Origin: Patescibacteria group bacterium
GTDB lineage: Bacteria > Patescibacteriota > UBA1384 > DATEAH01
Assembly (NCBI GenBank): GCA_035288465.1
Contig: DATEAH010000005.1
Span: 67,636 to 131,635, forward strand
Length of the DNA: 64,000 nt
Direction of reading: 5' to 3'
Shown here: positions 633 to 47,450 of the stretch, piece after piece
How positions within the stretch are numbered: position 1 is the stretch's first letter
How the letters are laid out: the number at the start of each line of letters is the position of its first letter
Notes under the pieces: generated by a model
What the model was told of the DNA's origin: nothing
Database searches by the model: none
What the model saw: the letters and a program-made list of their open reading frames with translations, nothing else
Translations under genes and position numbers: made by a program

Positions 633-1160
633 TCATTTTTTATACTCTAATTTTTCCTTTTCATACTCAAGAAAAGTCTTATACGATTGAAAATCTTTTA
701 ATAAAGAAGATTGTGCTTTTAGATTTGGGATAATAATTCTTCGCAATTTTCTTTTTGAGATCAAGTATTTATAAAGGCAACGAAAATCTCCATCTCCCGA
801 GACAATTACCGCTTTATCGTAATTGTTGTATTCGATCGCGGCGGAATATAAAACCAATTCAGCATCAATATTTCCTTTTGGTTTGCCTAAATTATCTTTG
901 GTGGTTGGTTTAAAAATTAGTTTATACCCGCAAGATTGAAGCTGTTGATACATTTTTGATTGTTCTTTAATATAGCCGATAAAAAGGAAAGCTTTTGAAA
1001 CACGGAATTTGTCAGTTAGATAAATTCTGAATTTTTTAAAATCGAGCCGCCAACCTTTATAAATTTTCTTCCCCTTTTTATTAAAAAGGTCTTTATTCGT
1101 CCCAAGATTTAAGTTTTGGCTATCAATGAAAGCATAAATTATGGGAAATCTTTTTTTCAT
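633..1160 (-). CDS. NYN-domain (LabA/PIN-like) predicted ribonuclease
   Basis: 175 aa; FIDSQN...SGDGDF motif pattern of NYN/DUF88 family; RBS ggaga upstream of ATG. Confidence 0.6.
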   Translation of the reverse strand: MKKRFPIIYAFIDSQNLNLGTNKDLFNKKGKKIYKGWRLDFKKFRIYLTDKFRVSKAFLFIGYIKEQSKMYQQLQSCGYKLIFKPTTKDNLGKPKGNIDAELVLYSAAIEYNNYDKAVIVSGDGDFRCLYKYLISKRKLRRIIIPNLKAQSSLLKDFQSYKTFLEYEKEKLEYKK

Positions 1161-1270
1161 ATTTTTTCTCCAGCTTTAATCCTACTCCAAAATCAGCCGA
1201 AAAGCAATGTTATTTTTTGACAAAAGAGCTTATTTTTTGTAAAATAAAGTGGCTCAAAAAGGAGATGAGA

Positions 1271-1858
1271 AATGTGGGCATCCTGAACAGGTTGTTTGGC
1301 GGTTCAAATCCTTTAGATCAAAGAGTTAAACAGATCGCCGATGAATTGGGTAGAAAATGCCGAGAATATCTTCAACAGCACCAGATTAACCCACAAACAG
1401 AAGCAATTAATATTGGTACTGCTTGTGGAATTATAAGAAAAGCCCATCACCCCGCACAATTTACTGATATTGCTTTTGACCTAATGACTTATCCTTCGGA
1501 AGTAGCTTATGGAATTGTAAATTATTTTGACTATTTTACCCCACAGCTCGGATTTATCCCGGTTGGCACGATAATGGTTGCTTTATCAAAAATTGAATCG
1601 TTGTATCCGGGAGGCGTAATAATCCGGCTATCATTTGCCAAAGAAAATCCAGAACTTATGGAGGTTATTGAGTCAAAAGAAGAAAGAATCAAAAGAGCCG
1701 GCAAAATAATTGCGGTTGGCATCCTTTTTACTCAAGAAACTCTCCGAGGAGCAAGGACAATGTACAAAAATAATGTCTTTGATCCATTGGTTCAAGCGGC
1801 AACCATCGAAGAATTGCGGAATTTTGACCCAGAAGTTGCTAGCGCAATTATCAGTTAA
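1271..1858 (+). CDS. hypothetical protein
   Basis: ORF 1217-1858; start moved to ATG 1271 preceded by aaaggag RBS; no recognizable domain. Confidence 0.5.
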   Translation, partial: NVGILNRLFGGSNPLDQRVKQIADELGRKCREYLQQHQINPQTEAINIGTACGIIRKAHHPAQFTDIAFDLMTYPSEVAYGIVNYFDYFTPQLGFIPVGTIMVALSKIESLYPGGVIIRLSFAKENPELMEVIESKEERIKRAGKIIAVGILFTQETLRGARTMYKNNVFDPLVQAATIEELRNFDPEVASAIIS

Positions 1859-1895
1859 GCCCTAAGAGGCTTCGCCCTTTCAGGGCTTTTTTTAT
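1859..1895 (+). terminator. rho-independent terminator (plus strand)
   Basis: gggcttcgccctttcagggc hairpin then TTTTTTT. Confidence 0.6.
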
Positions 1896-1936
1896 AATAA
1901 AAAAACCCGTTGGGGGTGGTGAGACCCGAAACGGGT
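1896..1936 (-). terminator. rho-independent terminator (minus strand)
   Basis: cccgtttcgggtctcaccacccccaacggg hairpin followed by T-run on minus strand. Confidence 0.6.
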
Positions 1937-1958
1937 GGATAATAAAGAAAAGTTGAAA

Positions 1959-2978
1959 TTAGATGCCGAGGATTAGTTTGGCTTGATTAATAAGATCTTG
2001 AGTTAGTGATATTGGCTTGAGTTGATATGCTTTCTCGAGATTGCCGAGAGCTTCCTTGATCATTGCCTTATCTTGAGTTAAAACTCCGAGTCGAAATTGT
2101 GAACGACCATATCTCATATAGATATCGGGTGTTTTTTTATAATTTTCAACATAAGATTTACAGTAAACATTTATCAATTGGTATCGAGAAATATTATATT
2201 TATTGAAGCTTTCTTCGAGGTCTTTTAAGTGTTGTTTGATACTATCAGGTACCCCTACGAAGGGATCCCAATTAAAAGTTTTTTCTTCTTGAATATATAA
2301 TTCATCTGCTTCCATGCTTATTTCAAGAAACCATATATTAATAAGACACCCTATTACTGTTAAATCTTGTGGATCTGATATCTTAGAAAATTGTTGTTTA
2401 AATGATGCGAATGCCTCAGATCCAACATCTCGATAACTAGTAAGCTTAGCTTCATCTAGCTTGCGTTGACAAGCGACACAAAGAGAAATCATCTTTACAA
2501 CTTCTGTAGTCTCTTTGGGGTGAGAGAAAACTCCTTCATCTATAATTATTTTTTCGGTTGCAGCTGAATCAGCAAGATATTGTTGGCTAAAGTCTGGATC
2601 TTTAGAGAATAAAAAAGACTTGGCATCCCAGACTTCATTTTTTTCATTATTGGCCAAATATATCGACGCAGAAAGAGTATAAGCCATTACTTTTTTTCCT
2701 AAAGCATTAGAAATTTTCGCCGACCATCTTATTAATTCAAAATCTTCATTGAATTCTATATCATTTTCTTTGTCTTCTTTCTCTAAAATATTTAACATAT
2801 TTACGGCATCTATATATTTCCCTTCATCAAAATATCCCTTCATAAGAGCTAGTGAAATAATTCTGGACATTTCGTAATCTGATACTACAAACTTATCTTC
2901 GGCATAAATTATGTTGGAGAATACTAATATTAATAGGACAAAGAGTGCGAGGAAAATGCTGCGTGGCGCTTGTTTCAC
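1959..2978 (-). CDS. secreted hypothetical protein (signal peptide)
   Basis: 339 aa; N-terminal hydrophobic signal MKQAPRSIFLALFVLLILVFSNIIYA; gaggtga RBS. Confidence 0.6.
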   Translation of the reverse strand: MKQAPRSIFLALFVLLILVFSNIIYAEDKFVVSDYEMSRIISLALMKGYFDEGKYIDAVNMLNILEKEDKENDIEFNEDFELIRWSAKISNALGKKVMAYTLSASIYLANNEKNEVWDAKSFLFSKDPDFSQQYLADSAATEKIIIDEGVFSHPKETTEVVKMISLCVACQRKLDEAKLTSYRDVGSEAFASFKQQFSKISDPQDLTVIGCLINIWFLEISMEADELYIQEEKTFNWDPFVGVPDSIKQHLKDLEESFNKYNISRYQLINVYCKSYVENYKKTPDIYMRYGRSQFRLGVLTQDKAMIKEALGNLEKAYQLKPISLTQDLINQAKLILGI

Positions 2979-3128
2979 TTGTCTTCACCTCGGGTTGGTA
3001 AGGTACAAGGCGCTTGGGTCTTGCCTTTTGTTCAATTGACATTATTTTAGCTTTATTGCCTAAAATTGTCAAGAAAAAACCCACCTTAGGTTTGGTACCC
3101 CTGGGTGGGCAAAAAAATAGTGACAAGG

Positions 3129-3659
3129 TTATTCGGTGGCAGAAGCCAAGATGTTAATGCCACCGACTAATGGTAGTTGGAGACAATTGTTTGGAATTTG
3201 ATAATTCTTCTTGACAATTATGGCTGAAATTGCACCTTCGTGCGACGCAGTCAGCCAATAAGGTTCTTCCCCAATGGGAATGCGAGCATCATACAATGGT
3301 TGAATCCAATATTGTCCGCCAGCAAACGCATAAACAGCGACGTCATGCTGATCAGGATTAACATTAAAGGTTCGCCCCTCAACTACTTTGACAATTGGTT
3401 CGTAAATGTTAGTATCATCAACATGGACATTGCCATAATAGGCTTGGGTGCCGTCGATAATGATTTCGGGTTGATCTGAGGGTGTGTGCGATATTGGCGA
3501 AATACTGATTTTGTATATCGGCAATAAGGTAATTTCCCTAACTGACGAATTACTATAAACATAACCGACACTATAACCGCGTTGCTCCGAAGATGCGCAA
3601 CCGGCAACGAAGATAGTGATTAGTGCCAAAATGGCGAGCACAGCCAACACGTGTTTCAT
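3129..3659 (-). CDS. hypothetical lipoprotein
   Basis: Start at MKHVLAVLAILALITIFVAGC (lipobox VAGC) with gagagga RBS; ORF track gives longer 3129-3698. Confidence 0.6.
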   Translation of the reverse strand: MKHVLAVLAILALITIFVAGCASSEQRGYSVGYVYSNSSVREITLLPIYKISISPISHTPSDQPEIIIDGTQAYYGNVHVDDTNIYEPIVKVVEGRTFNVNPDQHDVAVYAFAGGQYWIQPLYDARIPIGEEPYWLTASHEGAISAIIVKKNYQIPNNCLQLPLVGGINILASATE

Positions 3660-3707
3660 CTGGATCTCGTCCTCTCGGGGTAGGTTGTTAATGTTCAAAT
3701 TAGTTAA

Positions 3708-3736
3708 ATTTTACACTTATAGTATAATTTTGTCAA
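3708..3736 (-). promoter_or_regulatory. sigma70-like promoter TTGACA-17-TAAAAT for lipoprotein gene
   Basis: Minus-strand TTGACAaaattatactataagtgTAAAAT about 40 nt upstream of start codon. Confidence 0.5.
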
Positions 3737-3737
3737 T

Positions 3738-3842
3738 AAGAACCTCTCGCTTTGCACGAGAACCTTATTGCTTCGCTTACGCGCTACCCTTTCGGACTGC
3801 GGCTTCGCCTTGTAAACGACGCAATAAAAAAGCCGCACTTGG
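3738..3842. repeat. GC-rich structured repeat copy 2
   Basis: About 90% identity to 418-522; abuts the -35 box of the lipoprotein promoter. Confidence 0.8.
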
Positions 3843-3883
3843 GCTGGATGAGCCGGGCGCGGCATTTGAAAATGGAATAATTA

Positions 3884-4501
3884 TTATCCCAAATCTATAT
3901 CGTCTTCGGGATCAAAACCCTCAAATAAACGCTCAAAGATCGCAGCTTCCTCTGATGACAGATTGTTGATTTGAGCAATATCAATACCATAATTAGCGAG
4001 AACCTCCCGAATCGTCGGCAAGAAAAGATCGCTAGCCTGATCAAGTTTATCCTTAAGTTCTGGCGTCATGGCCTCGGCGGGAATATGAACCATAATACTT
4101 CCCCATGGGGCACTGACCAAAAGAGAAATAACTGACTTTACCCTAATCCCCAAATCTTCCATTGTTTTGACAGTCTCACTCTCTCGACCTTCGAGCAATT
4201 TATTTTCAATCTGGCCTAAGAAACTAAAGACTTCCTTAATATCTTCAAGATGAGCGTATTCATCCGGATGTTCGCGACAATAAACCTTAAAGTCATCAAT
4301 CATTTTGCTTTTTTCGCGATTAAACATCGCGTTAGTTATCCCGCCGGTAATCATTCCATTAAATAATTCGGAAATCATTGGATGTTGTCGCCAAGCATTT
4401 GCTCGTTGTTCGACAAAAATTTCAATGCAGACACAGATCTCTTCGTAGGTCAAGCTGATCGTCTCCTTTGGGGTGATATACTGAAAAAACAGATATATCA
4501 T
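3884..4501 (-). CDS. hypothetical protein
   Basis: 205 aa ORF, no recognizable motif. Confidence 0.5.
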   Translation of the reverse strand: MIYLFFQYITPKETISLTYEEICVCIEIFVEQRANAWRQHPMISELFNGMITGGITNAMFNREKSKMIDDFKVYCREHPDEYAHLEDIKEVFSFLGQIENKLLEGRESETVKTMEDLGIRVKSVISLLVSAPWGSIMVHIPAEAMTPELKDKLDQASDLFLPTIREVLANYGIDIAQINNLSSEEAAIFERLFEGFDPEDDIDLG

Positions 4502-4603
4502 ACTTTTTTGATTAAATAAAGTCAGGAAAAAAAGAGGCGGTGCAAATTTTGTAATTTGAACTGCCTCGGGCAGAAAAAGATTAGAAATTAATTATTAAGT
4601 TGG

Positions 4604-5296
4604 TTATGTAGCGACAGTTGGCTCTGGAACTTCCGGTTCGGCTGGAATTTCTGGTTCAAATTGTTCATAGCCTAGTTGCTGACAAACTTTGATTATGTAT
4701 TGGAGGTTCTCTAATTTACCGCCATTTTGCTCGAAGTATTCCAAACGCACTGCTGGCGACGTTACAATAATATCTTGTCCAAAACCACCCGTTAGAAGAT
4801 GATAACGCCACTCACCCATATTGATTTCGCAACGTTCCGGATTATCAAATTCCTTATTGTCACAGGCATCGCTATAGAAAGTGAACCGGCCTGAATATTC
4901 AAGTCCCACAAATCCTTGAGCAATCTTGATCGCTTCCTCAAATTTCATCCCGAAATCATGGCCTACCTGGCTAAAGGAGACAAAATCCGGCCACATCCTG
5001 TCAACTGCAATAGCATAATAATTCGCTGGCTTGTAATTCTGTGTATCTGCATCATATCCACCTTCAATTATCGGGCTATCCGTATGGTTAAAACGAGCAA
5101 TTTGTAATCCTGTTCCAACAACGACTCTTCCGGTATCAATTAAGTCTTGTGGAGCTTCAAGATAAGCATTAAACCAGCGTTGATTTCTTCGAGCCTCTTT
5201 CCAGCCGATTACCACCGCGTTAATGACCGTGCAAACTGCGTTCTTTAGTCGCATGTGATCTGGAAACTTGAAAAACAGTTCTTCGGTTGCGCTCAT
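4604..5296 (-). CDS. hypothetical protein
   Basis: 230 aa ORF with aaggagg RBS; acidic Pro/Glu-rich C-terminal tail; locally elevated GC. Confidence 0.55.
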   Translation of the reverse strand: MSATEELFFKFPDHMRLKNAVCTVINAVVIGWKEARRNQRWFNAYLEAPQDLIDTGRVVVGTGLQIARFNHTDSPIIEGGYDADTQNYKPANYYAIAVDRMWPDFVSFSQVGHDFGMKFEEAIKIAQGFVGLEYSGRFTFYSDACDNKEFDNPERCEINMGEWRYHLLTGGFGQDIIVTSPAVRLEYFEQNGGKLENLQYIIKVCQQLGYEQFEPEIPAEPEVPEPTVAT

Positions 5297-5417: not shown

Positions 5418-7238
5418 ATGGAATTAAGAAATATTGCAATTATTGCCCATGTTGATCACGGCAAAACGACTTTGGTTGACGGGCTCTTAAAACAATCGAA
5501 CACCTTTCGAGATAATGAGGCAGAAATGTCTCAGGATTTAATTATGGACTCAAATGATCAAGAAAGGGAACGCGGGATTACCATTTTAGCTAAAAATACG
5601 GCGGTGCATTACAAAGATGTCAAAATCAATATTATTGATACACCCGGACATGCTGATTTTGGTGGTGAAGTGGAACGCACTTTGAATATGGCAGACGGGG
5701 CGATTTTGCTAATTGATGCCCAGGAAGGACCGATGCCCCAGACCAAATTTGTTCTCAAAAAAGCTTTGGAAATTGGCTTAAAATTAATTGTGGTAATTAA
5801 TAAAATCGACAAGCGCGATGTCCAAGTGGCAAACACCCTTAATAAAACTTATGATTTATTTTTAGATCTGGCGACTCATGAATCTCAACTGGATTTTCCG
5901 GTTTATTTTTGTATTAGCCGTGAAGGCAAAGCTTGGGATGAATTGCCCCAGGATTGCCAAGAAGCGGCGGATTTGACGCCAATTTTTAAAGCAATTCTAA
6001 AATATATCCCAGCTCCTGATACAGATAGCAATAAACCTTTCCAAATGCAGGTGACTAATTTGGATTGGGATAATTTTCAAGGCAAATATGCGGTTGGTAG
6101 AATTACGAATGGTAAAACTGAGGAAAAACTCGCGGTTTCAATTGTAAATTCCGAGGGGGTTTTAGGAACTGCTCGGATTGAAAAAATTTATGTCAACCAG
6201 GGCTTAAAAAAAGTTGAAGTAAAAAAGGCGGAGGCTGGCAATATTGTGGCTATTACCGGAATACCGAATGCTAATATCGGCGACACGATTGCGGATTCTA
6301 AAAATCCAATCGCCCTGCCGCCAATTAAAATCGAAGAGCCAACTTTGAAAATGGCGATTTCGGCTAACACCTCGCCTTTTGCCGGTCTGGAAGGCGAATT
6401 TGTGACCAGCCGTCAAATTTTAGAACGAATTAAAAAAGAGCTGCAAACCAATATTTCCTTAAAGCTCGAAGAAAATGGGACCGAATTTATTTTGTCTGGC
6501 CGCGGAGAATTACATTTGTCGGTTTTTATCGAAACTTTACGGCGTGAAGGTTTTGAACTTCAAGTGAAAAAACCACAGGTTATCACCAAAGGAATTGACG
6601 GCACAATCTCGGAACCGGTTGAAGAATTAACGATCGATGTTGATTGCGATAAAATTGGGGTTGTTAAAGCCGAAGTTGGTAAAAGAAAAGGTATTTTACT
6701 TTCTCATGACCAAAACAGTGATGGGACAACCCGTTTGGTGTACGAAATTACCACCAGAGGTTTATTGGGCTTGAGAAACCAGTTGCTGAGAATTACTCGC
6801 GGCACGGCAACTTTGAATTCGATTTTTCTTCGTTTTCAGCCTGCTGGCGCTGAGCTGCCGAAACTTCGAAACGGGGTTTTGATTGCTTCGGCTGGCGGAA
6901 AGGCGGTTGCATATGGAATAAATATCGCACAAGGTCGCGGCATGACCATAATTGAACCTAATGCCCAAGTATACGCGGGACAAATTATTGGTTTAAATAA
7001 TCGTGGCGAAGATCTTGAAATTAATGTCACCAAAGAAAAACAAAAAACCAATATTCGTTCTTCGACTTCTGATATCGCGGTTATTTTAACCCCGCCAACC
7101 CTTTTGTCGCTCGAACAATGTTTGGATTTTTTGGAAAACGATGAATTTTTGGAAGTAACACCGAAGAATTTGCGGCTTCGAAAAATAATTTTAGACGCAG
7201 TATCGCGCGCAAAAGCCAAAAAAGTGAACTCAAATTAA
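5418..7238 (+). CDS. typA: translational GTPase TypA/BipA
   Basis: 606 aa; [13 protein letters not shown]1 motif, [13 protein letters not shown]; full-length BipA architecture. Confidence 0.95.
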
Positions 7239-7246
7239 TTTTTTAA

Positions 7247-7783
7247 TCAACCTTTGCCAAGAGTTTTTTGGCCAGGTTTCCAGCCAGCCGGACTCATTTC
7301 GCCGGTTTGTAGGGCTTTGAGAACTCGCAAAATTTCGGTCACACTTCTGCCAACATTATTATCGGAAACTAAAATATAACGAATGATTCCTTTGGGATCA
7401 ATGATAAAAGTGCCTCTTGAGGAAATTCCGGAGGCTAAATCTATTTCATATTTTTGAATGGCTTCTTTGTTGATATCTGATAAGAGCGGGAATTTTATAT
7501 CGCCTAGTTGTCTTGACCATTCCTGATGGGCATAAACGCTGTCGACACTGACTCCTAAAATTTCCGTGTGGCTATCTGCGAATTCCTGATATTTTTTATT
7601 CAGAGCGATAATTTCCGTCGGACAGACAAAACTAAAATCCAAGGGATAAAAAAAGAGAATTACCCACTTTTTACGATAATCTTTTAAGTTGTATTTCTTG
7701 ATATGGTTGGCTTTGAAACCTTCAAGAATAATATTGGGGGCTTTTTGACCAAGTTTAATCATTTTTTTCCTTTCTTTTGCCAC
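7247..7783 (-). CDS. peroxiredoxin (AhpC/TSA family)
   Basis: 178 aa; FFYPLDFSFVCPTE peroxidatic-cysteine motif. Confidence 0.9.
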   Translation of the reverse strand: MAKERKKMIKLGQKAPNIILEGFKANHIKKYNLKDYRKKWVILFFYPLDFSFVCPTEIIALNKKYQEFADSHTEILGVSVDSVYAHQEWSRQLGDIKFPLLSDINKEAIQKYEIDLASGISSRGTFIIDPKGIIRYILVSDNNVGRSVTEILRVLKALQTGEMSPAGWKPGQKTLGKG

Positions 7784-7797
7784 GAGATGGCGAAGTA

Positions 7798-7990
7798 TGG
7801 CTGAGCCATTTTTCGTGGCTCCGGGACAGGGATTCGAAGGGCTAAAGCCCGTCTCAACGCAGTCGTGGTATTTTTATTTCACGATTTGTGTAATAATTTC
7901 AGCATAAATAATTTTGTGGTTTGCGCAACGGGGTTCTCGCCAGATCACGGACAACTCAAAATCTTCCTATAAAACTGAAAAATTTTGAGT
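7798..7990 (-). mobile_element. putative miniature tRNA-linked element A (between tRNA-Gln and peroxiredoxin gene)
   Basis: Contains terminator-like hairpin, gaacccNNNgcg block, AT-rich block, conserved hairpin gggctttagccc (7839-7850) and a 23-nt duplicate of the tRNA-Gln 3' end (7816-7838). Confidence 0.4.
7816..7838 (-). repeat. duplicate of tRNA-Gln 3' end (T-loop to CCA), 1 mismatch
   Basis: ttcgaatccctgtcccggagcca vs tRNA tccgaatccctatcccggagcca at 7991-8013; lacks T-stem 5' strand so not a tRNA. Confidence 0.85.
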
Positions 7991-8064
7991 TGGCTCCGGG
8001 ATAGGGATTCGGACCCCAATTTTCAGGACCAAAACCTGACGTCCTGCCATTAGACGATCCCGGA
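7991..8064 (-). tRNA. tRNA-Gln (anticodon TTG), CCA encoded
   Basis: Hand-folded cloverleaf: acceptor tccggga/tcccgga, D-stem gtct/ggac, anticodon stem tcagg/cctga, loop ttTTGgt, T-arm tgggg-tccgaat-cccta. Confidence 0.85.
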
Positions 8065-8130
8065 ATCTGCTTTAATTCTATCACAAATTATGCTTATTTA
8101 AAATAAAATCACCCAATTTGGGTGATTTTG

Positions 8131-8151
8131 TATATCTTGAGTGGATAATAA
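8131..8151 (+). repeat. 21-bp direct repeat identical to rnpB 3' end (copy distal to rnpB)
   Basis: atatcttgagtggataataag identical to 9165-9185; both copies preceded by a GC hairpin plus gatttt. Confidence 0.85.
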
Positions 8152-8187
8152 GATGAATTAATAATATAATACAACCAGGAGGAAATA

Positions 8188-9108
8188 ATGAATGGACCAG
8201 AAATATTTTCGGAATCAAATGGAGAACATGATCACAACGAATTTTCTAATATTCCAATAGACCCAGAAATTTCAGAGGAAAATACTAAAGCCCGAGAACT
8301 TACAAGTTTAACGATAGACTTTTTGCATAATGCTCACATTTCTAAAGAAAAAAGAGGTAATCCAGAGCTACAAGATGCAACTTTAATGAGATTATTCCAA
8401 GACCAGTCCTGGCGTCTCAGAGTTAATAAAGCAACCCAGAAAGCAGATCAAGAGTGGCAAAAGACAGCCAAAACTTTTACAGTCGCGAGAGAGTTGTCGC
8501 GAGAAGCACCCTTTGTTACTCCGTCGTTTGCTTGTCCTTCGCCATTTGTTGAATTGTTAGCTGATTATGATCAGGGCTTAGAAATTGCTAAACTTAAAGA
8601 AAATTCACCATTGGAAAGTTGGCTAGAAGCTTATATTCGCGAAAGACCGGTTAAATTTTATAATCCTTCTCATAGTCTTGCATCTCCTGATCTTATTGCA
8701 CTTAGACGTGAAGGAAAATCGGCAGTAATAGTTGCCGTTGGCGAAGCGAAAAGAGGTTATCTCGGTGTCGGGGAAAGACCTTCTCAATCTAGGGATCGCA
8801 GAGAGGGATTGCCACAATTTAGAAAAATACTTAGAGATCTCCCTAAAAGAGTTAAACTTCTCAATTCTAATCTTTCTTCCATGAGAGAAAAAAGGCCATT
8901 TCTAAAAGAAATTGATGAATTTGCGGTTGCAGGTTTAACCGAATTGAAAAAATATTTAATAGTCCCATTTGATGTCGCTACTCCTCGTGAAGACATGAAA
9001 ATTCGAGGTCTTGAGCCTTGGGAAAGAGATGAAATGAGTTTTTCACGCCAAGAATTGGCTTACCTTTCATTGTTATTAGTGCGTCAATCAAAAATAAAAA
9101 AACAATAA
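8188..9108 (+). CDS. hypothetical protein (cargo of the segment bounded by rnpB 3' end repeats)
   Basis: 306 aa; strong aggagg RBS; no recombinase or other recognizable motifs. Confidence 0.6.
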   Translation: MNGPEIFSESNGEHDHNEFSNIPIDPEISEENTKARELTSLTIDFLHNAHISKEKRGNPELQDATLMRLFQDQSWRLRVNKATQKADQEWQKTAKTFTVARELSREAPFVTPSFACPSPFVELLADYDQGLEIAKLKENSPLESWLEAYIRERPVKFYNPSHSLASPDLIALRREGKSAVIVAVGEAKRGYLGVGERPSQSRDRREGLPQFRKILRDLPKRVKLLNSNLSSMREKRPFLKEIDEFAVAGLTELKKYLIVPFDVATPREDMKIRGLEPWERDEMSFSRQELAYLSLLLVRQSKIKKQ

Positions 9109-9126
9109 GATCTAAATCAAAAATTA

Positions 9127-9160
9127 TAATTTAAAAAATCGTCCTAAACTGGGACGATTT
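9127..9160. terminator. bidirectional rho-independent terminator
   Basis: aaaaaatcgtcctaaactgggacgattttt: hairpin flanked by A-run and T-run, between convergent ORF 8188-9108 and rnpB. Confidence 0.6.
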
Positions 9161-9164
9161 TTAA

Positions 9165-9540
9165 ATATCTTGAGTGGATAATAAGCCGAGTTTTGTTCCG
9201 CCAATTGGCGGAAGATAATCATCTATCTTTGCGGTGGGTCCCAAAATGTCCAAAACGAGCAGCTTCATTACCATATGGTGACATTTCAGTCCATTCCACC
9301 TTGCACCGGATAGGGTTTACCACTTTCCGATGTTACCATTGGAAAGAGAGGCTTCTTAGGTCCTCACTTTTCACCCTTACCACGCCTCATCGGCGGGCGG
9401 TTTAGTTTCTGTGACACTTTCCCTCGTTCGCACGGCCCTTCATCCCCAAATGTTAATCTGAAGGGTGCGGGGTATCCTGCTCTGTGGTGCTCGGACTTTC
9501 CTCTCCACCTCATCGGTGGAGCGATTATCTAATCCACTCA
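9165..9540 (-). ncRNA. rnpB: RNase P RNA (bacterial type A)
   Basis: Minus strand contains GAGGAAAGTCCGagCaCC (P4 5' strand) and ACAaAACtCGGCTTAT (P4 3' strand); P1 helix gtcttgagtggat/atccactcaaga; length about 375 nt. Confidence 0.85.
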
Positions 9541-9544
9541 AGAC

Positions 9545-9573
9545 AGCCTAATTTTACCAAATAAAGCCTATTT
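9545..9573 (-). promoter_or_regulatory. sigma70-like promoter TTGACA-17-TAAAAT for rnpB (inside uvrA 3' end)
   Basis: TTGACAaaataggctttatttggTAAAAT, -10 ends about 5-7 nt before P1. Confidence 0.55.
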
Positions 9574-9575
9574 TG

Positions 9576-12446
9576 TCAAGTATTTTTCAAGAGTTTTTTG
9601 AGGTATTGGCCGGTGTAGGATTTGGCCACTTTGGAAACCGCTTCAGGGGAACCGGTGGCTGTCACATAGCCGCCTTTTTCGCCACCTTCTGGGCCTAAAT
9701 CTATTAGCCAGTCGGCAGCTTTAATGACATCCATATTATGTTCGACGACTAAAACTGAATTTCCCATCTCCACTAAGCGATCTAAAACACCCATTAATTT
9801 GGTAATATCTTCAAAATGCAAACCAGTGGTAGGTTCGTCTAAAATATACAGGGTTGAACCGGTGGCTTTGCGCGATAATTCCGTGGCTAATTTAACCCGC
9901 TGCGCTTCCCCACCAGACAAGGTAATTGCCGATTGTCCCAAATGAATATAGCCTAAACCAACGTCGTCTAAAATTTTTAATTTTTCTCGAACTTGGGGAA
10001 TATTTTCAAAAAATCCAAGAGCCTCAACCACCGTCATTTCCAAAACATCCGCAATAGTTTTGCCTCGAAAATGGATTTCCAAAGCTTCTTTGTTGTATCT
10101 TTTGCCTTTACATTCTTCGCAGGTGATCCAAATATCGGGTAAAAAATGCATTTCAATTTTTATCTGACCTTCGCCATGGCAAGTCTCACATCTGCCGCCC
10201 TTAACATTAAAGGAAAAACGACCGGCACGATATCCTCTAAGTTTCGCTTCTGGAGTTGAGGCAAAAAGTTCGCGAATTGGTGTAAACAAACCGGTGTAGG
10301 TAGCCGGATTTGAACGAGGAGTGCGGCCAATCGGCGATTGATCAATCATAATGACTTTGTTGAGATATTCAAGGCCGCGAATTTCTTGGTGTTTGCCGGG
10401 CGCGACTCTTGAACGATGGAATTTTTTCGCCAAGGCTTTGGCTAAAATTTCACAAATCAAGGTTGATTTTCCCGATCCAGAAACGCCAGTAACACAAGTT
10501 AGTAAACCTATTGGAATTTTAACATTGATCTTTTTGAGATTAAATTCTTCGGCACCAATAATTTCCAAAAATTTATGATTAGGTTGGCGGCGTTTTTCAG
10601 GGATGGGGTTGGCTTTTTTACCAGATAAATATTGGCCAGTAATTGATTTAGGATTTTTTGAAATTTGGCTGACGGTGCCTTGAGCAATAATTTTTCCACC
10701 TAAATCGCCGGCTCCAGGTCCAATATCAAAAATATAATCGGCAGCTATTATAGTTTCCATATCATGTTCAACTACAATCACGCTATTGCCTAAATCACGC
10801 AAATCCTTGAGAGTTTTGAGCAATCTGCTGACATCGCGCTGGTGCAAACCAATCGAAGGCTCATCTAAAATATAAACGACGCCGACTAAACCAGAACCAA
10901 TTTGCGTGGCAAGCCGGATTCGCTGCGCTTCCCCACCAGCCAGAGTGGCAACATTACGATTTAAGGTTAAATAGGATAAACCGACATTTTCCAAAAATTT
11001 TAAACGCGCTTTAATTTCTTTTAATATCTGGTTGGCAATAATTTTATTTTTTTCGCTTAATTTCGCGTCAAGTTTTTTAAAAAATTCAATTAGTTTTTCG
11101 ACAGATAATTGCGCCACTTCAATAATTGATTTATCGGCCAAAGTGATAGCTAGGGCTTCGGGTTTTAAGCGCTGACCATGGCAAGTTGGACAAATTTTTT
11201 CTACCATATATTTTCTAATTTCCGAGCGAATAAAATCTGAGTCAGTTTCCATATATCGACGCTGAAGATTAGGAACAACACCTTCAAAATTTGTCACATA
11301 TTCTCGAACGGATCCGGCACCGGATGAGACTTGATAAACCTCGTTGCCGGTACCATATAAAACCAAATTCAGGGTCTTGCCGCTTAATTCTCGAACCGGG
11401 ACATTAACGGAAAATTTATGTACAACGGCGACCTTATCTAAAATTCTTTGAAACCAAGTAGAATGGGAAACAGTTCTGACCCATGGCCGAATGGCGCCCT
11501 CAGCCAAGGTTAAATTTTTGTTGGGAATTACCAAATTTGGTTCAACCTCTAATTTTGTCCCTAATCCTTGGCAATCCGGACATGCGCCATGTGGGGAATT
11601 AAAAGAAAAAAGCCGAGGCTGAATTTCTGGCAAACTAATCCCACAATCAGGACAGGCAAAATGTTCAGAAAAAATTATATCTCGGTCATTTTCAAAATCA
11701 TGAATATAAATAATGCCATCACCCAGATCTAAAGCTGTTTCCACCGATCCTGAGAGCCTGGTTTTATCTAAACCCTTAGATAACATCAAGCGGTCCACTA
11801 CGACTTCGATTGAATGTTTTTTATTTTTATCCAATTTTGGGACTTGCGATAAATCGTAAACTGATTTGTCAACCCGGACCCGCACAAAACCGGCTTTAGC
11901 AATTTCTTCAAAAACCTTTTTGTGCTCGCCTTTTTGGTCTAAAATAATCGGCGATAAAATCATCACTTTTTTTTCGGGTTTTTTAGATTTGGCAATTAAG
12001 TTGGCAATTTGTTTGACAATTTGGGTTGGGGTTTGGCTTTGTATGGGTTTGCCACAATTTGGACAATGCGGTTCGCCGATTCTGGCAAATAATAAGCGCA
12101 GATAATCATAAATTTCGGTAATGGTGCCGACCGTGGAACGAGGATTTTTAGAGGCTGATTTTTGGTCAATGGAAATAGCCGGAGACAAACCTTCAATGTA
12201 ATCCACATCTGGTTTTTCCATCACCCCTAAAAATTGTCGCGCATATGAAGATAAACTCTCGACATAACGGCGCTGGCCTTCGGCATAAATTGTATCAAAA
12301 GCTAAAGATGATTTTCCAGACCCGGATAACCCGGTAAAAACGACTAATTTATCTCTGGGAATTTCCAAACTGATATTTTTTAAATTATGTTCACGAGCAC
12401 CAATTATTTTAATTTTTCCGCCAGCAAATTTTGGAGTTTTTGGCAT
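9576..12446 (-). CDS. uvrA: excinuclease ABC subunit A
   Basis: 956 aa; two ABC ATPase modules ([18 protein letters not shown]), zinc-finger cysteines, LSGGE signature motifs. Confidence 0.97.
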
Positions 12447-12671
12447 CTTGAAGCCTTTCTATGAGTTCAAATTTATAATATTATAATAATATGTCAAAAA
12501 TATATACCAATGAACAATTATATCACGAATGTCAAGAGAATAAAAGTGTTATAAATTGCGTTTTTGAAAATTAAAATTTATTTTTTGGAATTTTTAAATC
12601 ATTTGATATATAATAGAGTTAAATTATCAGCTTTAATATAAAGAGTTTAATTAAATAGATTGGAGTCTATT

Positions 12672-25166: not shown

Positions 25167-25259
25167 TTTCCGGAAAGAAAACTCTTTTGAGGTTTTTTTC
25201 GGAAAATGGCTTGTGGTGGTAAGAACCCACAGGCGATAAATAAACAATTGAGTAAAAAG

Positions 25260-25288
25260 TTGATATTTTAGCAAAGACTTAATATAAA
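25260..25288 (+). promoter_or_regulatory. sigma70-like promoter TTGATA-17-TATAAA inside element C
   Basis: ttgatattttagcaaagacttaatataaa; 30-nt block nearly identical to element B (47338-47366). Confidence 0.45.
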
Positions 25289-25323
25289 TCAAAATGTTGT
25301 TGCATCGGGACGGGGTTTACCCC

Positions 25324-25343
25324 TTCGATCCCCTCCAGGCCCT
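25324..25343 (+). repeat. exact duplicate of tRNA-Lys 3' end (T-loop to discriminator)
   Basis: ttcgatcccctccaggccct identical to 25147-25166. Confidence 0.9.
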
Positions 25344-47282: not shown

Positions 47283-47450
47283 AGTGGGTAACGAGAGTCG
47301 AAGGGCTGAAGCCCGTCTCAACGCAATTGAATTAAAATTTATTTAATGTTTTTGCTAAAATATCACGTTGATTTTAATAAGTGACTAACGCTTCGGGTTC
47401 GACACACTTACTTATTTCTTTTTGCCGTTTTTAGACGGTACAAAGAAATA
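47283..47450 (-). mobile_element. putative miniature tRNA-linked element B (downstream of tRNA-Trp, upstream of vanX-like gene)
   Basis: Terminator-like hairpin, gaacccgaagcg block, promoter-like block, conserved hairpin gggcttcagccc, 20-nt duplicate of tRNA-Trp 3' end (47283-47302, 2 mismatches). Confidence 0.4.
47338..47366 (-). promoter_or_regulatory. sigma70-like promoter GTGATA-17-AATAAA inside element B
   Basis: Minus-strand gtgatattttagcaaaaacattaaataaa; would transcribe hairpin + tRNA-end copy + vanX-like gene. Confidence 0.4.

Follow-up and report, generated by a model that had tools for sequence, protein, structure and literature searches.

Stable-RNA genes as landing sites for acquired DNA

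Integrase-mediated islands and prophages in tRNA and tmRNA genes leave a recognizable pair of boundaries, attL being the restored gene and attR the displaced 3′ fragment (Reiter 1989; Williams 2002; Islander/TIGER, PMC7192596). No targets other than tRNA, tmRNA and protein-coding genes are named in the main text of the TIGER/Islander paper (PMC7192596). Here we describe a comparable arrangement at rnpB, the RNase P RNA gene, in a 64,000-nt stretch of DNA (hereafter, the window) from a Patescibacteria group bacterium (GCA_035288465.1, contig DATEAH010000005.1, positions 67,636–131,635). As in the integrase islands of tRNA and tmRNA genes, an intact RNA gene is accompanied downstream by a same-orientation copy of its last ~20 nt, with identity ending at the RNA 3′ end; tRNA-Gln, tRNA-Lys and tRNA-Gly of the window have T-loop-to-3′-end copies, as in classical islands. 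Unlike those islands, the window has rnpB as the target, no integrase in the unit or in the 64 kb, a 1-kb unit with one orphan gene, a proximal flank of native type, and neither an empty site nor polymorphism. No account of rnpB serving as an attachment site turned up in the searchable literature; the first-pass annotation of this stretch had called insertion into rnpB unusual. The reading that we prefer, on an evenly balanced judgment, is that the locus is a fixed scar of recombination which used the rnpB 3′ end as crossover or anchor point in a variable slot.

Three further types of system resemble the locus in part. Streptococcus thermophilus reportedly carries att-flanked elements without an integrase that were left by, or depend on, integrative and conjugative elements (ICEs), such as the cis-mobilizable elements (CIMEs) connected with ICESt1. 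Like CIMEs, the window has att-like direct repeats around cargo that lacks a recombinase; unlike the case of CIMEs, no cognate autonomous element with the same 21-mer was found in IMG/VR or in a scan of metagenome contigs. Homology-facilitated illegitimate recombination during the uptake of related DNA, said to have been described by de Vries and Wackernagel in 2002 and by Prudhomme in 2002, is similar in that the locus has a conserved anchor (rnpB and uvrA), a non-homologous joint on the opposite side, and cargo of similar composition that could come from a related genome. This process usually deletes recipient DNA and leaves no 21-nt duplication, whereas the window has one. Finally, as in variable islets between conserved genes, among them defence and selfish nuclease genes beside stable-RNA genes, the slot after rnpB holds different genes in related genomes, but only the window genome has a repeat of the rnpB 3′ end.

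The rnpB 3′ end is present twice

A 21-nt sequence, ATATCTTGAGTGGATAATAAG (CUUAUUAUCCACUCAAGAUAU when read in the rnpB sense), occurs exactly twice in the window, at 9165–9185 (copy A) and at 8132–8152 (copy B), both on the minus strand. The copies have the same orientation and a start-to-start spacing of 1033 bp, with copy B downstream of copy A in the rnpB sense. The direct repeat of the rnpB 3′ end, including the 3′ strand of the P1 helix, had been noticed in the first-pass annotation and is confirmed here; the coordinates given there for copy A were right, and those for copy B (8131–8151) were one base off. None of 100 dinucleotide-preserving shuffles contained a match to the 21-mer, even at up to three mismatches. 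Extended into the flanks, the repeat covers 34 nt at 85% identity. It comprises the tail of the conserved CGGCUUA block, the entire 3′ strand of P1 and two or three extra bases, and it reaches approximately the mature 3′ end of rnpB. Copy A (CUUAUUAUCCACUCAAGAU plus 2 nt) consists of the last 19 nt of rnpB and two further nucleotides, and copy B is a 21-nt stub identical to the rnpB 3′ end; identity between the copies ends at the RNA 3′ end.

The rest of rnpB is absent at copy B, as no second RNase P match was obtained at E ≤ 1 in 7700–9700 and the upstream flanks of the copies are dissimilar. A second, degenerate rnpB beneath the intervening gene is ruled out by the lack of a covariance-model match and of flank similarity. 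Copy B is also not an inverted 5′ end or promoter of rnpB, with which only the 12-nt P1 core and a 6-mer match, compared with 21/21 for the 3′ end.

The functional gene is complete. The full-length match to RNase P RNA of type A (9167–9540, minus strand; Rfam RF00010) scores 175.3 bits against a gathering score of 100, covers model positions 1–367 and is not truncated. The P1 helix of 12 bp is intact (9168–9179 pairs with 9532–9543), and the conserved GAGGAAAGUCCG and ACAAAACUCGGCUUA blocks are aligned in the covariance-model match. By its score, P1 and P4, the window rnpB is a bacterial RNase P RNA of type A.

Each copy is adjoined by a GC hairpin, as the first-pass annotation had noted. Terminator A (9131–9165), with the stem ATCGTCC/GGACGAT and 14-nt arms that are 93% complementary, is bidirectional and common to rnpB and to the convergent 306-codon open reading frame (ORF306) described below. 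Terminator B (8105–8129) is a perfect 12-bp hairpin with the stem ATCACCC/GGGTGAT (12-nt arms, 100% complementary) and follows the stub in the rnpB sense. Each hairpin forms a stable fold on both strands (z-scores, −3.1 to −4.1). Two stem base pairs differ between them, both in a compensated manner, and the loops differ too. The two terminators and ~25 nt beyond them have a weak collinear similarity (score 25, p about 0.005–0.01). This weak homology and the two compensated stem changes fit two diverged rnpB 3′ flanks, and on alignment the modules look like two diverged versions of one such flank. The terminator A stem occurs only once in the 64-kb window, which rules out a generic genome-wide motif.

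Along the minus strand, the order of features is uvrA, the rnpB promoter, rnpB, copy A, terminator A, ORF306 on the opposite strand, the ORF306 promoter, copy B, terminator B, the tRNA-Gln promoter and tRNA-Gln. The uvrA gene occupies 12446–9576 (minus strand). The predicted rnpB promoter (9551–9579, minus strand; TTGACA-17-TAAAAT with TG before the −10 hexamer) has 11 of 12 consensus matches, and a promoter is found at the same position in two related loci, L086 and L087. Directly after terminator B lies the predicted tRNA-Gln promoter (8075–8102, minus strand; TTTAAA-16-TAGAAT with TG; 9 of 12 matches), followed by tRNA-Gln(UUG) at 7991–8064 (minus strand; ARAGORN, Rfam 55.2 bits), which has the atypical T-loop TCCGAAT.

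The arrangement recurs across assemblies. Identical TypA is encoded on 23 contigs from JGI, ENA and Logan assemblies, and all contigs among them that reach the locus carry the 306-aa gene. Between the peroxiredoxin start and the uvrA stop, seven further assemblies match the 1.8 kb of the window at 100% identity; another differs by one single-nucleotide polymorphism (SNP), and L001 has a 16-bp deletion. At least eight independent assemblies (JGI, ENA, Logan) span both copies. Among the source samples are JGI 3300025167, 3300025313, 3300025325 and 3300025159, ENA ERZ27254793 through ERZ27254867, and SRR3989430, SRR3990168 and SRR3990170. Since the segment is present wherever a same-species contig extends to the locus, it is fixed in the population.

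Scans of IMG/VR with a 17-mer and a 19-mer returned no attP-like site, and a 19-mer scan of metagenome contigs returned no single-copy (empty) site; besides the same locus, it yielded only a match in L084 and L085. The 19-mer (23 nt in L085) lies there inside DUF262/GmrSD-like genes from unrelated metagenomes (L084 11128–11146; L085 1521–1539), where it encodes AYLEWIIR. As the matches are within a coding region and the two loci are homologous to each other, they are judged to be one chance match rather than attP.

ORF306, the gene between the copies

The only long ORF between the copies is ORF306 (8188–9108, plus strand), which is convergent with rnpB. An AGGAGG ribosome-binding site, read from the sequence, lies 5 nt upstream of its ATG (8177–8182, plus strand). 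A promoter is predicted at 8142–8170 (plus strand; TGGATA-17-TATAAT, 10 of 12 consensus matches), and an alternative one at 8137–8165 (plus strand; TTGAGT-17-AATAAT, 9 of 12 matches); both predicted −35 hexamers fall inside copy B. The in-frame codon log-likelihood is 0.215 per codon, compared with 0.26 ± 0.07 for 27 long ORFs of the window, and is negative in the other frames. These values mark ORF306 as genuinely coding. With 37.8% GC (window mean, 38.2%), its composition is host-like, as is its codon usage, and this fits a donor from the same clade.

The product could not be assigned to a family. There was no match in Pfam, NCBIfam, PHROGs, PADLOC or PDB sequences, and both a word-index search of 5.8 billion protein clusters and an exhaustive phmmer search of 1.84 billion cluster representatives found only ORF306 itself. 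No relatives were found in phage and plasmid records (tblastn) or IMG/VR, and no paralogues within the window. The description in the first-pass annotation of a single antisense 306-aa ORF with an AGGAGG site and no recognizable domain or integrase signature is therefore upheld by the library searches. The structure prediction that it had suggested was run with AlphaFold on the single sequence, without an alignment, and gave an unusable model (predicted local distance difference test score, pLDDT, 34). By eye, residues 167–188 (P167-D168 ... E186-A-K188) resemble the PD-(D/E)XK nuclease motif, a likeness for which profile searches gave no match. A decayed GH57 gene, or a relative of the orphan gene of L088, was ruled out by blastp and tblastx. 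On the preferred reading, ORF306 is a passenger that fills the slot.

In L001, the 16-bp deletion (window ~8277–8292; L001 ~1950–1966, JGI 3300025167) frameshifts the acidic N-terminal 45 residues of ORF306, and the gene caller restarts the frame at a TTG codon to give a product of 261 aa.

The slot between rnpB and tRNA-Gln in related genomes

The nearest relatives, by UvrA, are 76–78% identical; a scan of a genome collection with UvrA gave a best match of 62% identity and no relatives. In L086 (UvrA 78%), uvrA is followed by rnpB, a terminator, a GH57 gene on the opposite strand and tRNA-Gln(UUG). L087 (76%) has the same gene set, with the entire rnpB cassette (promoter, gene and terminator) inverted. 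In L104 (70%), a GmrSD gene and a 92-aa ORF are followed by an inverted rnpB with a GIY-YIG ORF inside P3, and L088, L091 and L105 (69–76%) have no rnpB near uvrA. With uvrA taken as the plus strand, rnpB lies at 10872–11238 (plus) in L086, at 10448–10808 (minus) in L087 and on the minus strand in L104. Within this clade, the position of rnpB is unusually unstable: the gene stands in opposite orientations beside uvrA and is absent there in three loci.

The slot on the rnpB side is occupied by GH57 in L086 and L087, by GmrSD and the unknown ORF in L104, and by ORF306 in the window. GH57 has the same slot and orientation as ORF306, and rnpB does not abut tRNA-Gln in either locus. The presence of GH57 in the nearest relatives indicates that the slot was ancestrally occupied and was not an empty attachment site; the comparison of related genomes proposed in the first-pass annotation revealed no empty rnpB site. 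No repeat of the rnpB 3′ end is present in the rnpB-bearing relatives L086, L087 and L104. The findings that the first-pass annotation had named as refuting integration were not obtained: relatives have rnpB without ORF306, and the repeat is not a widespread motif.

Synteny with the relatives is kept on the uvrA side (bactofilin, DAGK-like, IF3, Mg-chelatase-like, IPPT) and stops just beyond terminator A. Past this break tRNA-Gln is retained, but the slot holds a different gene, GH57, in the relatives. GH57 and the downstream genes of the relatives are absent from the window, and typA of the relatives lies on other contigs with other neighbours. In blastn, homology between the window and L086 runs from 9580 down to 9129, that is, through terminator A. 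The alignment shows that the stem, the A-run, the T-run and the next four bases of terminator A are common to the rnpB terminators of L086 and L087, to which terminator A is, on this evidence, orthologous.

This orthology bears on the location of the boundary. A crossover by an integrase inside the 21-mer predicts that terminator A is element DNA and terminator B is native. Because terminator A is typical of the clade and serves the working gene, a simple foreign island cut in at attB is excluded. Two readings would then remain: either a block from the rnpB locus of a related genome came in, or the stub side is the newcomer.

3′-end copies at tRNA genes

The last and first 20 nt of all 12 stable-RNA genes (11 tRNA genes and rnpB) were scanned against the window. 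Downstream 3′-end copies in the same orientation were found for four of the 12 genes, including three of the 11 tRNA genes, and no 5′-end copies were found in the window. The copy of rnpB matches at 21/21 positions, with a gap of 1012 nt between gene end and copy. The copy of tRNA-Lys matches at 20/20 with a gap of 157 nt (unit 25167–25343, plus strand, 177 nt), that of tRNA-Gly(UCC) at 18/20 with a gap of 148 nt (unit 47283–47450, minus strand, 168 nt), and that of tRNA-Gln at 21/23, including CCA, with a gap of 152 nt (unit 7816–7990, minus strand, 175 nt). For comparison, 19 tRNAs from unrelated loci yielded a single case of this kind: in L045 (1200–1461, minus strand), a metagenome-assembled genome of Oscillospiraceae, a ~32-nt copy from the T-arm to CCA lies 159 nt downstream of tRNA-Thr, after a strong terminator. 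This case indicates that tRNA stubs are not unique to the window genome, though they are enriched there.

The three tRNA modules have a common layout, in which the gene is followed by a terminator hairpin of 37–41 nt, ~110 nt of further sequence, and then the copy, starting at the T-loop TTCGA. In the tRNA-Gln module, these parts are a hairpin at 7952–7992, a segment of ~113 nt and a 23-nt copy at 7816–7838. The first-pass annotation had credited tRNA-Gln with its own duplicate; what is present is this 3′ fragment of 21–23 nt, and there is no second gene. The three ~110-nt inserts are homologous to one another (nhmmer E-values 1e-34 to 3e-41), and nhmmer found no further copies of them in the window, including the ORF306 segment. 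A conserved hairpin motif is fused directly to the copy (TGCGTTGAGACGGGCTTYAGCCC joined to TTCGA in Gln and Gly, and a compensated GGGG/CCCC hairpin in Lys); its general form is GACGGG-N-TT-N-A-N-CCC followed immediately by TTCGA.

The modules have no Rfam family match. They are not pseudo-tRNAs, since cognate 5′ halves score no better than non-cognate ones, and a conserved antisense small RNA was ruled out by the absence of a consensus structure. Four matches to the motif in viral contigs have a coding-like context with no tRNA 3′-end copy alongside and are judged to be chance. The modules could represent either a family of miniature att-flanked elements or a regulatory module that has yet to be described.

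The tRNA-Gln stub is identical to the T-loop and T-stem of the relatives (TTCGAATCCCTG), while the working gene reads TCCGAAT...CCCTA. That the stub keeps the older allele would be expected if incoming DNA supplied the working 3′ end. The working T-loop has C where the near-universal U55 is expected, as opposed to the canonical TTCGAAT of the stub and of tRNA-Gln in the relatives. In sample L001, the tRNA-Gln T-loop has an additional SNP (G to A).

Possible origins of the locus

The footprint of an integrase-type element, an intact gene and a displaced fragment of its 3′ part in direct orientation, is present at rnpB. Nevertheless, three of five tested features of integrase-type islands are lacking. 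No integrase, recombinase or transposase family was recognized in ORF306 or in the 50 other window ORFs of at least 114 aa; occurrence is not sporadic, as all same-species contigs extending to the locus are occupied and the relatives at 76–78% UvrA identity hold GH57; and the proximal flank is not foreign, as terminator A and its flanks are common to the rnpB terminators of L086 and L087. The site-specific integration put forward in the first-pass annotation is thus partly supported: its footprint stands, also at three tRNA genes, whereas the recombinase, the empty site and the foreign proximal flank were not found. A demonstrably mobile element is not supported. For a transposon with target-site duplication, inverted repeats at the segment ends and a transposase among the window ORFs are missing, and a native terminator of ~35 nt separates the proximal repeat from the novel DNA, unlike a target-site duplication.

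In the proposed history, DNA would have been exchanged in the variable slot between rnpB and tRNA-Gln, with the crossover or anchor at the 3′ end of rnpB. A complete rnpB 3′ end would have come from one partner, and the end of the other would have been left as the 21-nt stub with its own terminator; identity would stop exactly at the RNA 3′ end because only the RNA part is constrained. With the preferred polarity, a block of ~1.0 kb (the rnpB end, a terminator of the clade type, ORF306 and its promoter) from a related Patescibacterium would have entered the resident rnpB and displaced the resident end and terminator B towards tRNA-Gln. The joint may have been made by a site-specific recombinase acting in trans or by homology-anchored plus illegitimate recombination, and copy B now overlaps the −35 region of the predicted ORF306 promoter. 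The canonical footprint, the identity that ends at the RNA 3′ end, the recurrence at three tRNA genes and the older allele in the tRNA-Gln stub are all consistent with an insertion that restores the 3′ end.

Should the scar stem from such an insertion, rnpB would have to be added to tRNA and tmRNA genes as a target of acquired DNA, and this in Patescibacteria, a lineage with small genomes that are believed to hold few mobile elements. The locus is also an example of an orphan gene fixed beside an essential ribozyme gene with a terminator in common. For now, the rnpB case is a curiosity: well documented, but showing no sign of activity. The wider tRNA pattern may matter more, with copies at four of 12 stable-RNA genes and three inserts that are homologous and of equal size; it suggests an undescribed miniature element family or regulatory module.

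Several points weigh against this history. Neither an empty site nor an excised form was seen in any same-species contig covering the locus, and the presence of the segment does not vary among them; the insertion or replacement is accordingly inferred rather than observed, as are its polarity and its donor. The nearest relatives are distant. The preferred polarity needs a past rnpB directly upstream of tRNA-Gln, and the two informative relatives have GH57 there. The terminator beside rnpB must have come with the block, yet it looks native to the clade. The flank similarity stands at p about 0.01, with none at two of the three tRNA cases. Finally, there is no sequence in common between the rnpB segment and the tRNA modules, so that a common mechanism would be an analogy only.

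The reverse polarity would explain the terminator data more simply, and we consider it a serious, if clearly less probable, competitor. Here, uvrA, rnpB, terminator A and the slot gene would be resident, and the stub would be the relic of a second rnpB; the block of stub, terminator B, tRNA-Gln, peroxiredoxin and typA would have been joined by chromosomal rearrangement or by acquisition of a homologous region, with a breakpoint 21 nt from the end of the other rnpB and its body lost. Consistent with this, it is terminator A that is orthologous to the terminators of the relatives, and terminator B is the diverged one. The location of typA elsewhere in the relatives implies that the tRNA-Gln/peroxiredoxin/typA side was rearranged in the window lineage, and rnpB is unstably placed (on the uvrA strand in L086, opposite to it in L087 and L104, missing near uvrA in L088, L091 and L105). 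Moreover, the corresponding 21-mer of L104 differs by only 2 nt, although its terminator is unrelated; conservation alone could thus plausibly account for 21/21 identity between two related copies of rnpB. On the other hand, the breakpoint must by chance have left the same type of 3′-terminal stub as at three tRNA genes, no other trace of a second rnpB is present, and it is left unexplained why the stubs are always 3′ ends downstream of an intact gene.

A single uncharacterised targeting system might have made both the rnpB unit and the three ~170-nt tRNA modules. It would place DNA just past the terminators of stable-RNA genes, with each insert carrying at its distal end a guide-like repeat of the final ~20 nt of the RNA, fused at the tRNAs to the conserved hairpin. 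It would act by sequence match to the 3′ end of the RNA gene and not by a classical integrase crossover; ORF306 might be a component. The likeness to Tn7-like or RNA-guided insertion is one of geometry only, with the insert ~35–41 nt past a matched 20-nt site and a copy of the site at the far end, and no TnsB, TnsC, TniQ or TnsD families were found in the 51 window ORFs. We regard such a system as improbable; if it were real, rnpB would be a new class of attachment site in Patescibacteria.

An autonomous mobile element directed at rnpB is slightly harder still to believe in; ORF306 would then be a recombinase or nuclease of a new kind, able to recognize the 21-mer and move the 1-kb unit. The direct repeats that bound a single-gene unit, the PD...(x17)...EAK pattern seen by eye at residues 167–188 of ORF306, and the nuclease genes at rnpB in L104 (the GIY-YIG ORF inside P3 and GmrSD beside the 3′ end) are in its favour. 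However, neither a profile, nor a structure, nor a homologue backs an enzymatic fold for ORF306. A mobile gene is expected to have relatives, but no second copy was found in the protein-cluster, IMG/VR, phage or plasmid searches. Terminal inverted repeats are missing, one sample tolerates the 16-bp frameshifting deletion, and the unit contains a terminator of native type.

We think it comparably doubtful that the stub is kept for a function, either as the −35 region or operator of the ORF306 promoter or, if the plus strand is transcribed, as an antisense of 21 nt against the RNase P RNA 3′ end. Copy B is identical at 21/21 positions while the adjacent hairpin differs in two compensated stem pairs and in the loop, both predicted −35 hexamers lie inside it, and the tRNA copies adjoin a conserved hairpin with one compensatory change. 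Yet 6 nt, rather than 21, suffice for a promoter; transcription is predicted to start beyond copy B (~8177), which would leave the copy outside the mRNA; and the relatives manage without it. Chance similarity or an assembly artefact, for which only the general risk of repeat-induced misassembly in metagenomes speaks, is practically negligible given the shuffles and the near-identity of the region in at least eight independent assemblies that span both copies.

Further features of the related loci and of the window

In L104 (9462–10100, minus strand), the P3 loop of rnpB holds an insertion of ~250 bp coding for a GIY-YIG nuclease of 81 aa (Pfam PF01541, 3e-19). The Rfam alignment is confined to the portion 3′ of this insertion; the true 5′ strand of P1 and the promoter are on its far side. 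No report of a GIY-YIG-type insertion in a bacterial rnpB was found in the literature. Between uvrA and the rnpB 3′ end of the same locus, at 7025–9413, are the GmrSD-type (type IV restriction) gene and the 92-aa unknown ORF.

In L086, an exact 14-nt repeat, AAGGCTGATTTGAT (28 nt at 82% identity), brackets rnpB and GH57 at 10829–10856 and 12584–12611. It sits just upstream of rnpB and of tRNA-Gln, and the corresponding sequences of L087 are inverted. This repeat may be a recombination substrate for the inversion of the rnpB cassette.

Upstream of typA, a run of seven ORFs (window 633–5296) adjoins the locus and is rich in orphans. Five of the six ORFs tested (213, 339, 189, 205 and 230 aa) have no Pfam family, and the sixth encodes an NYN-domain protein.

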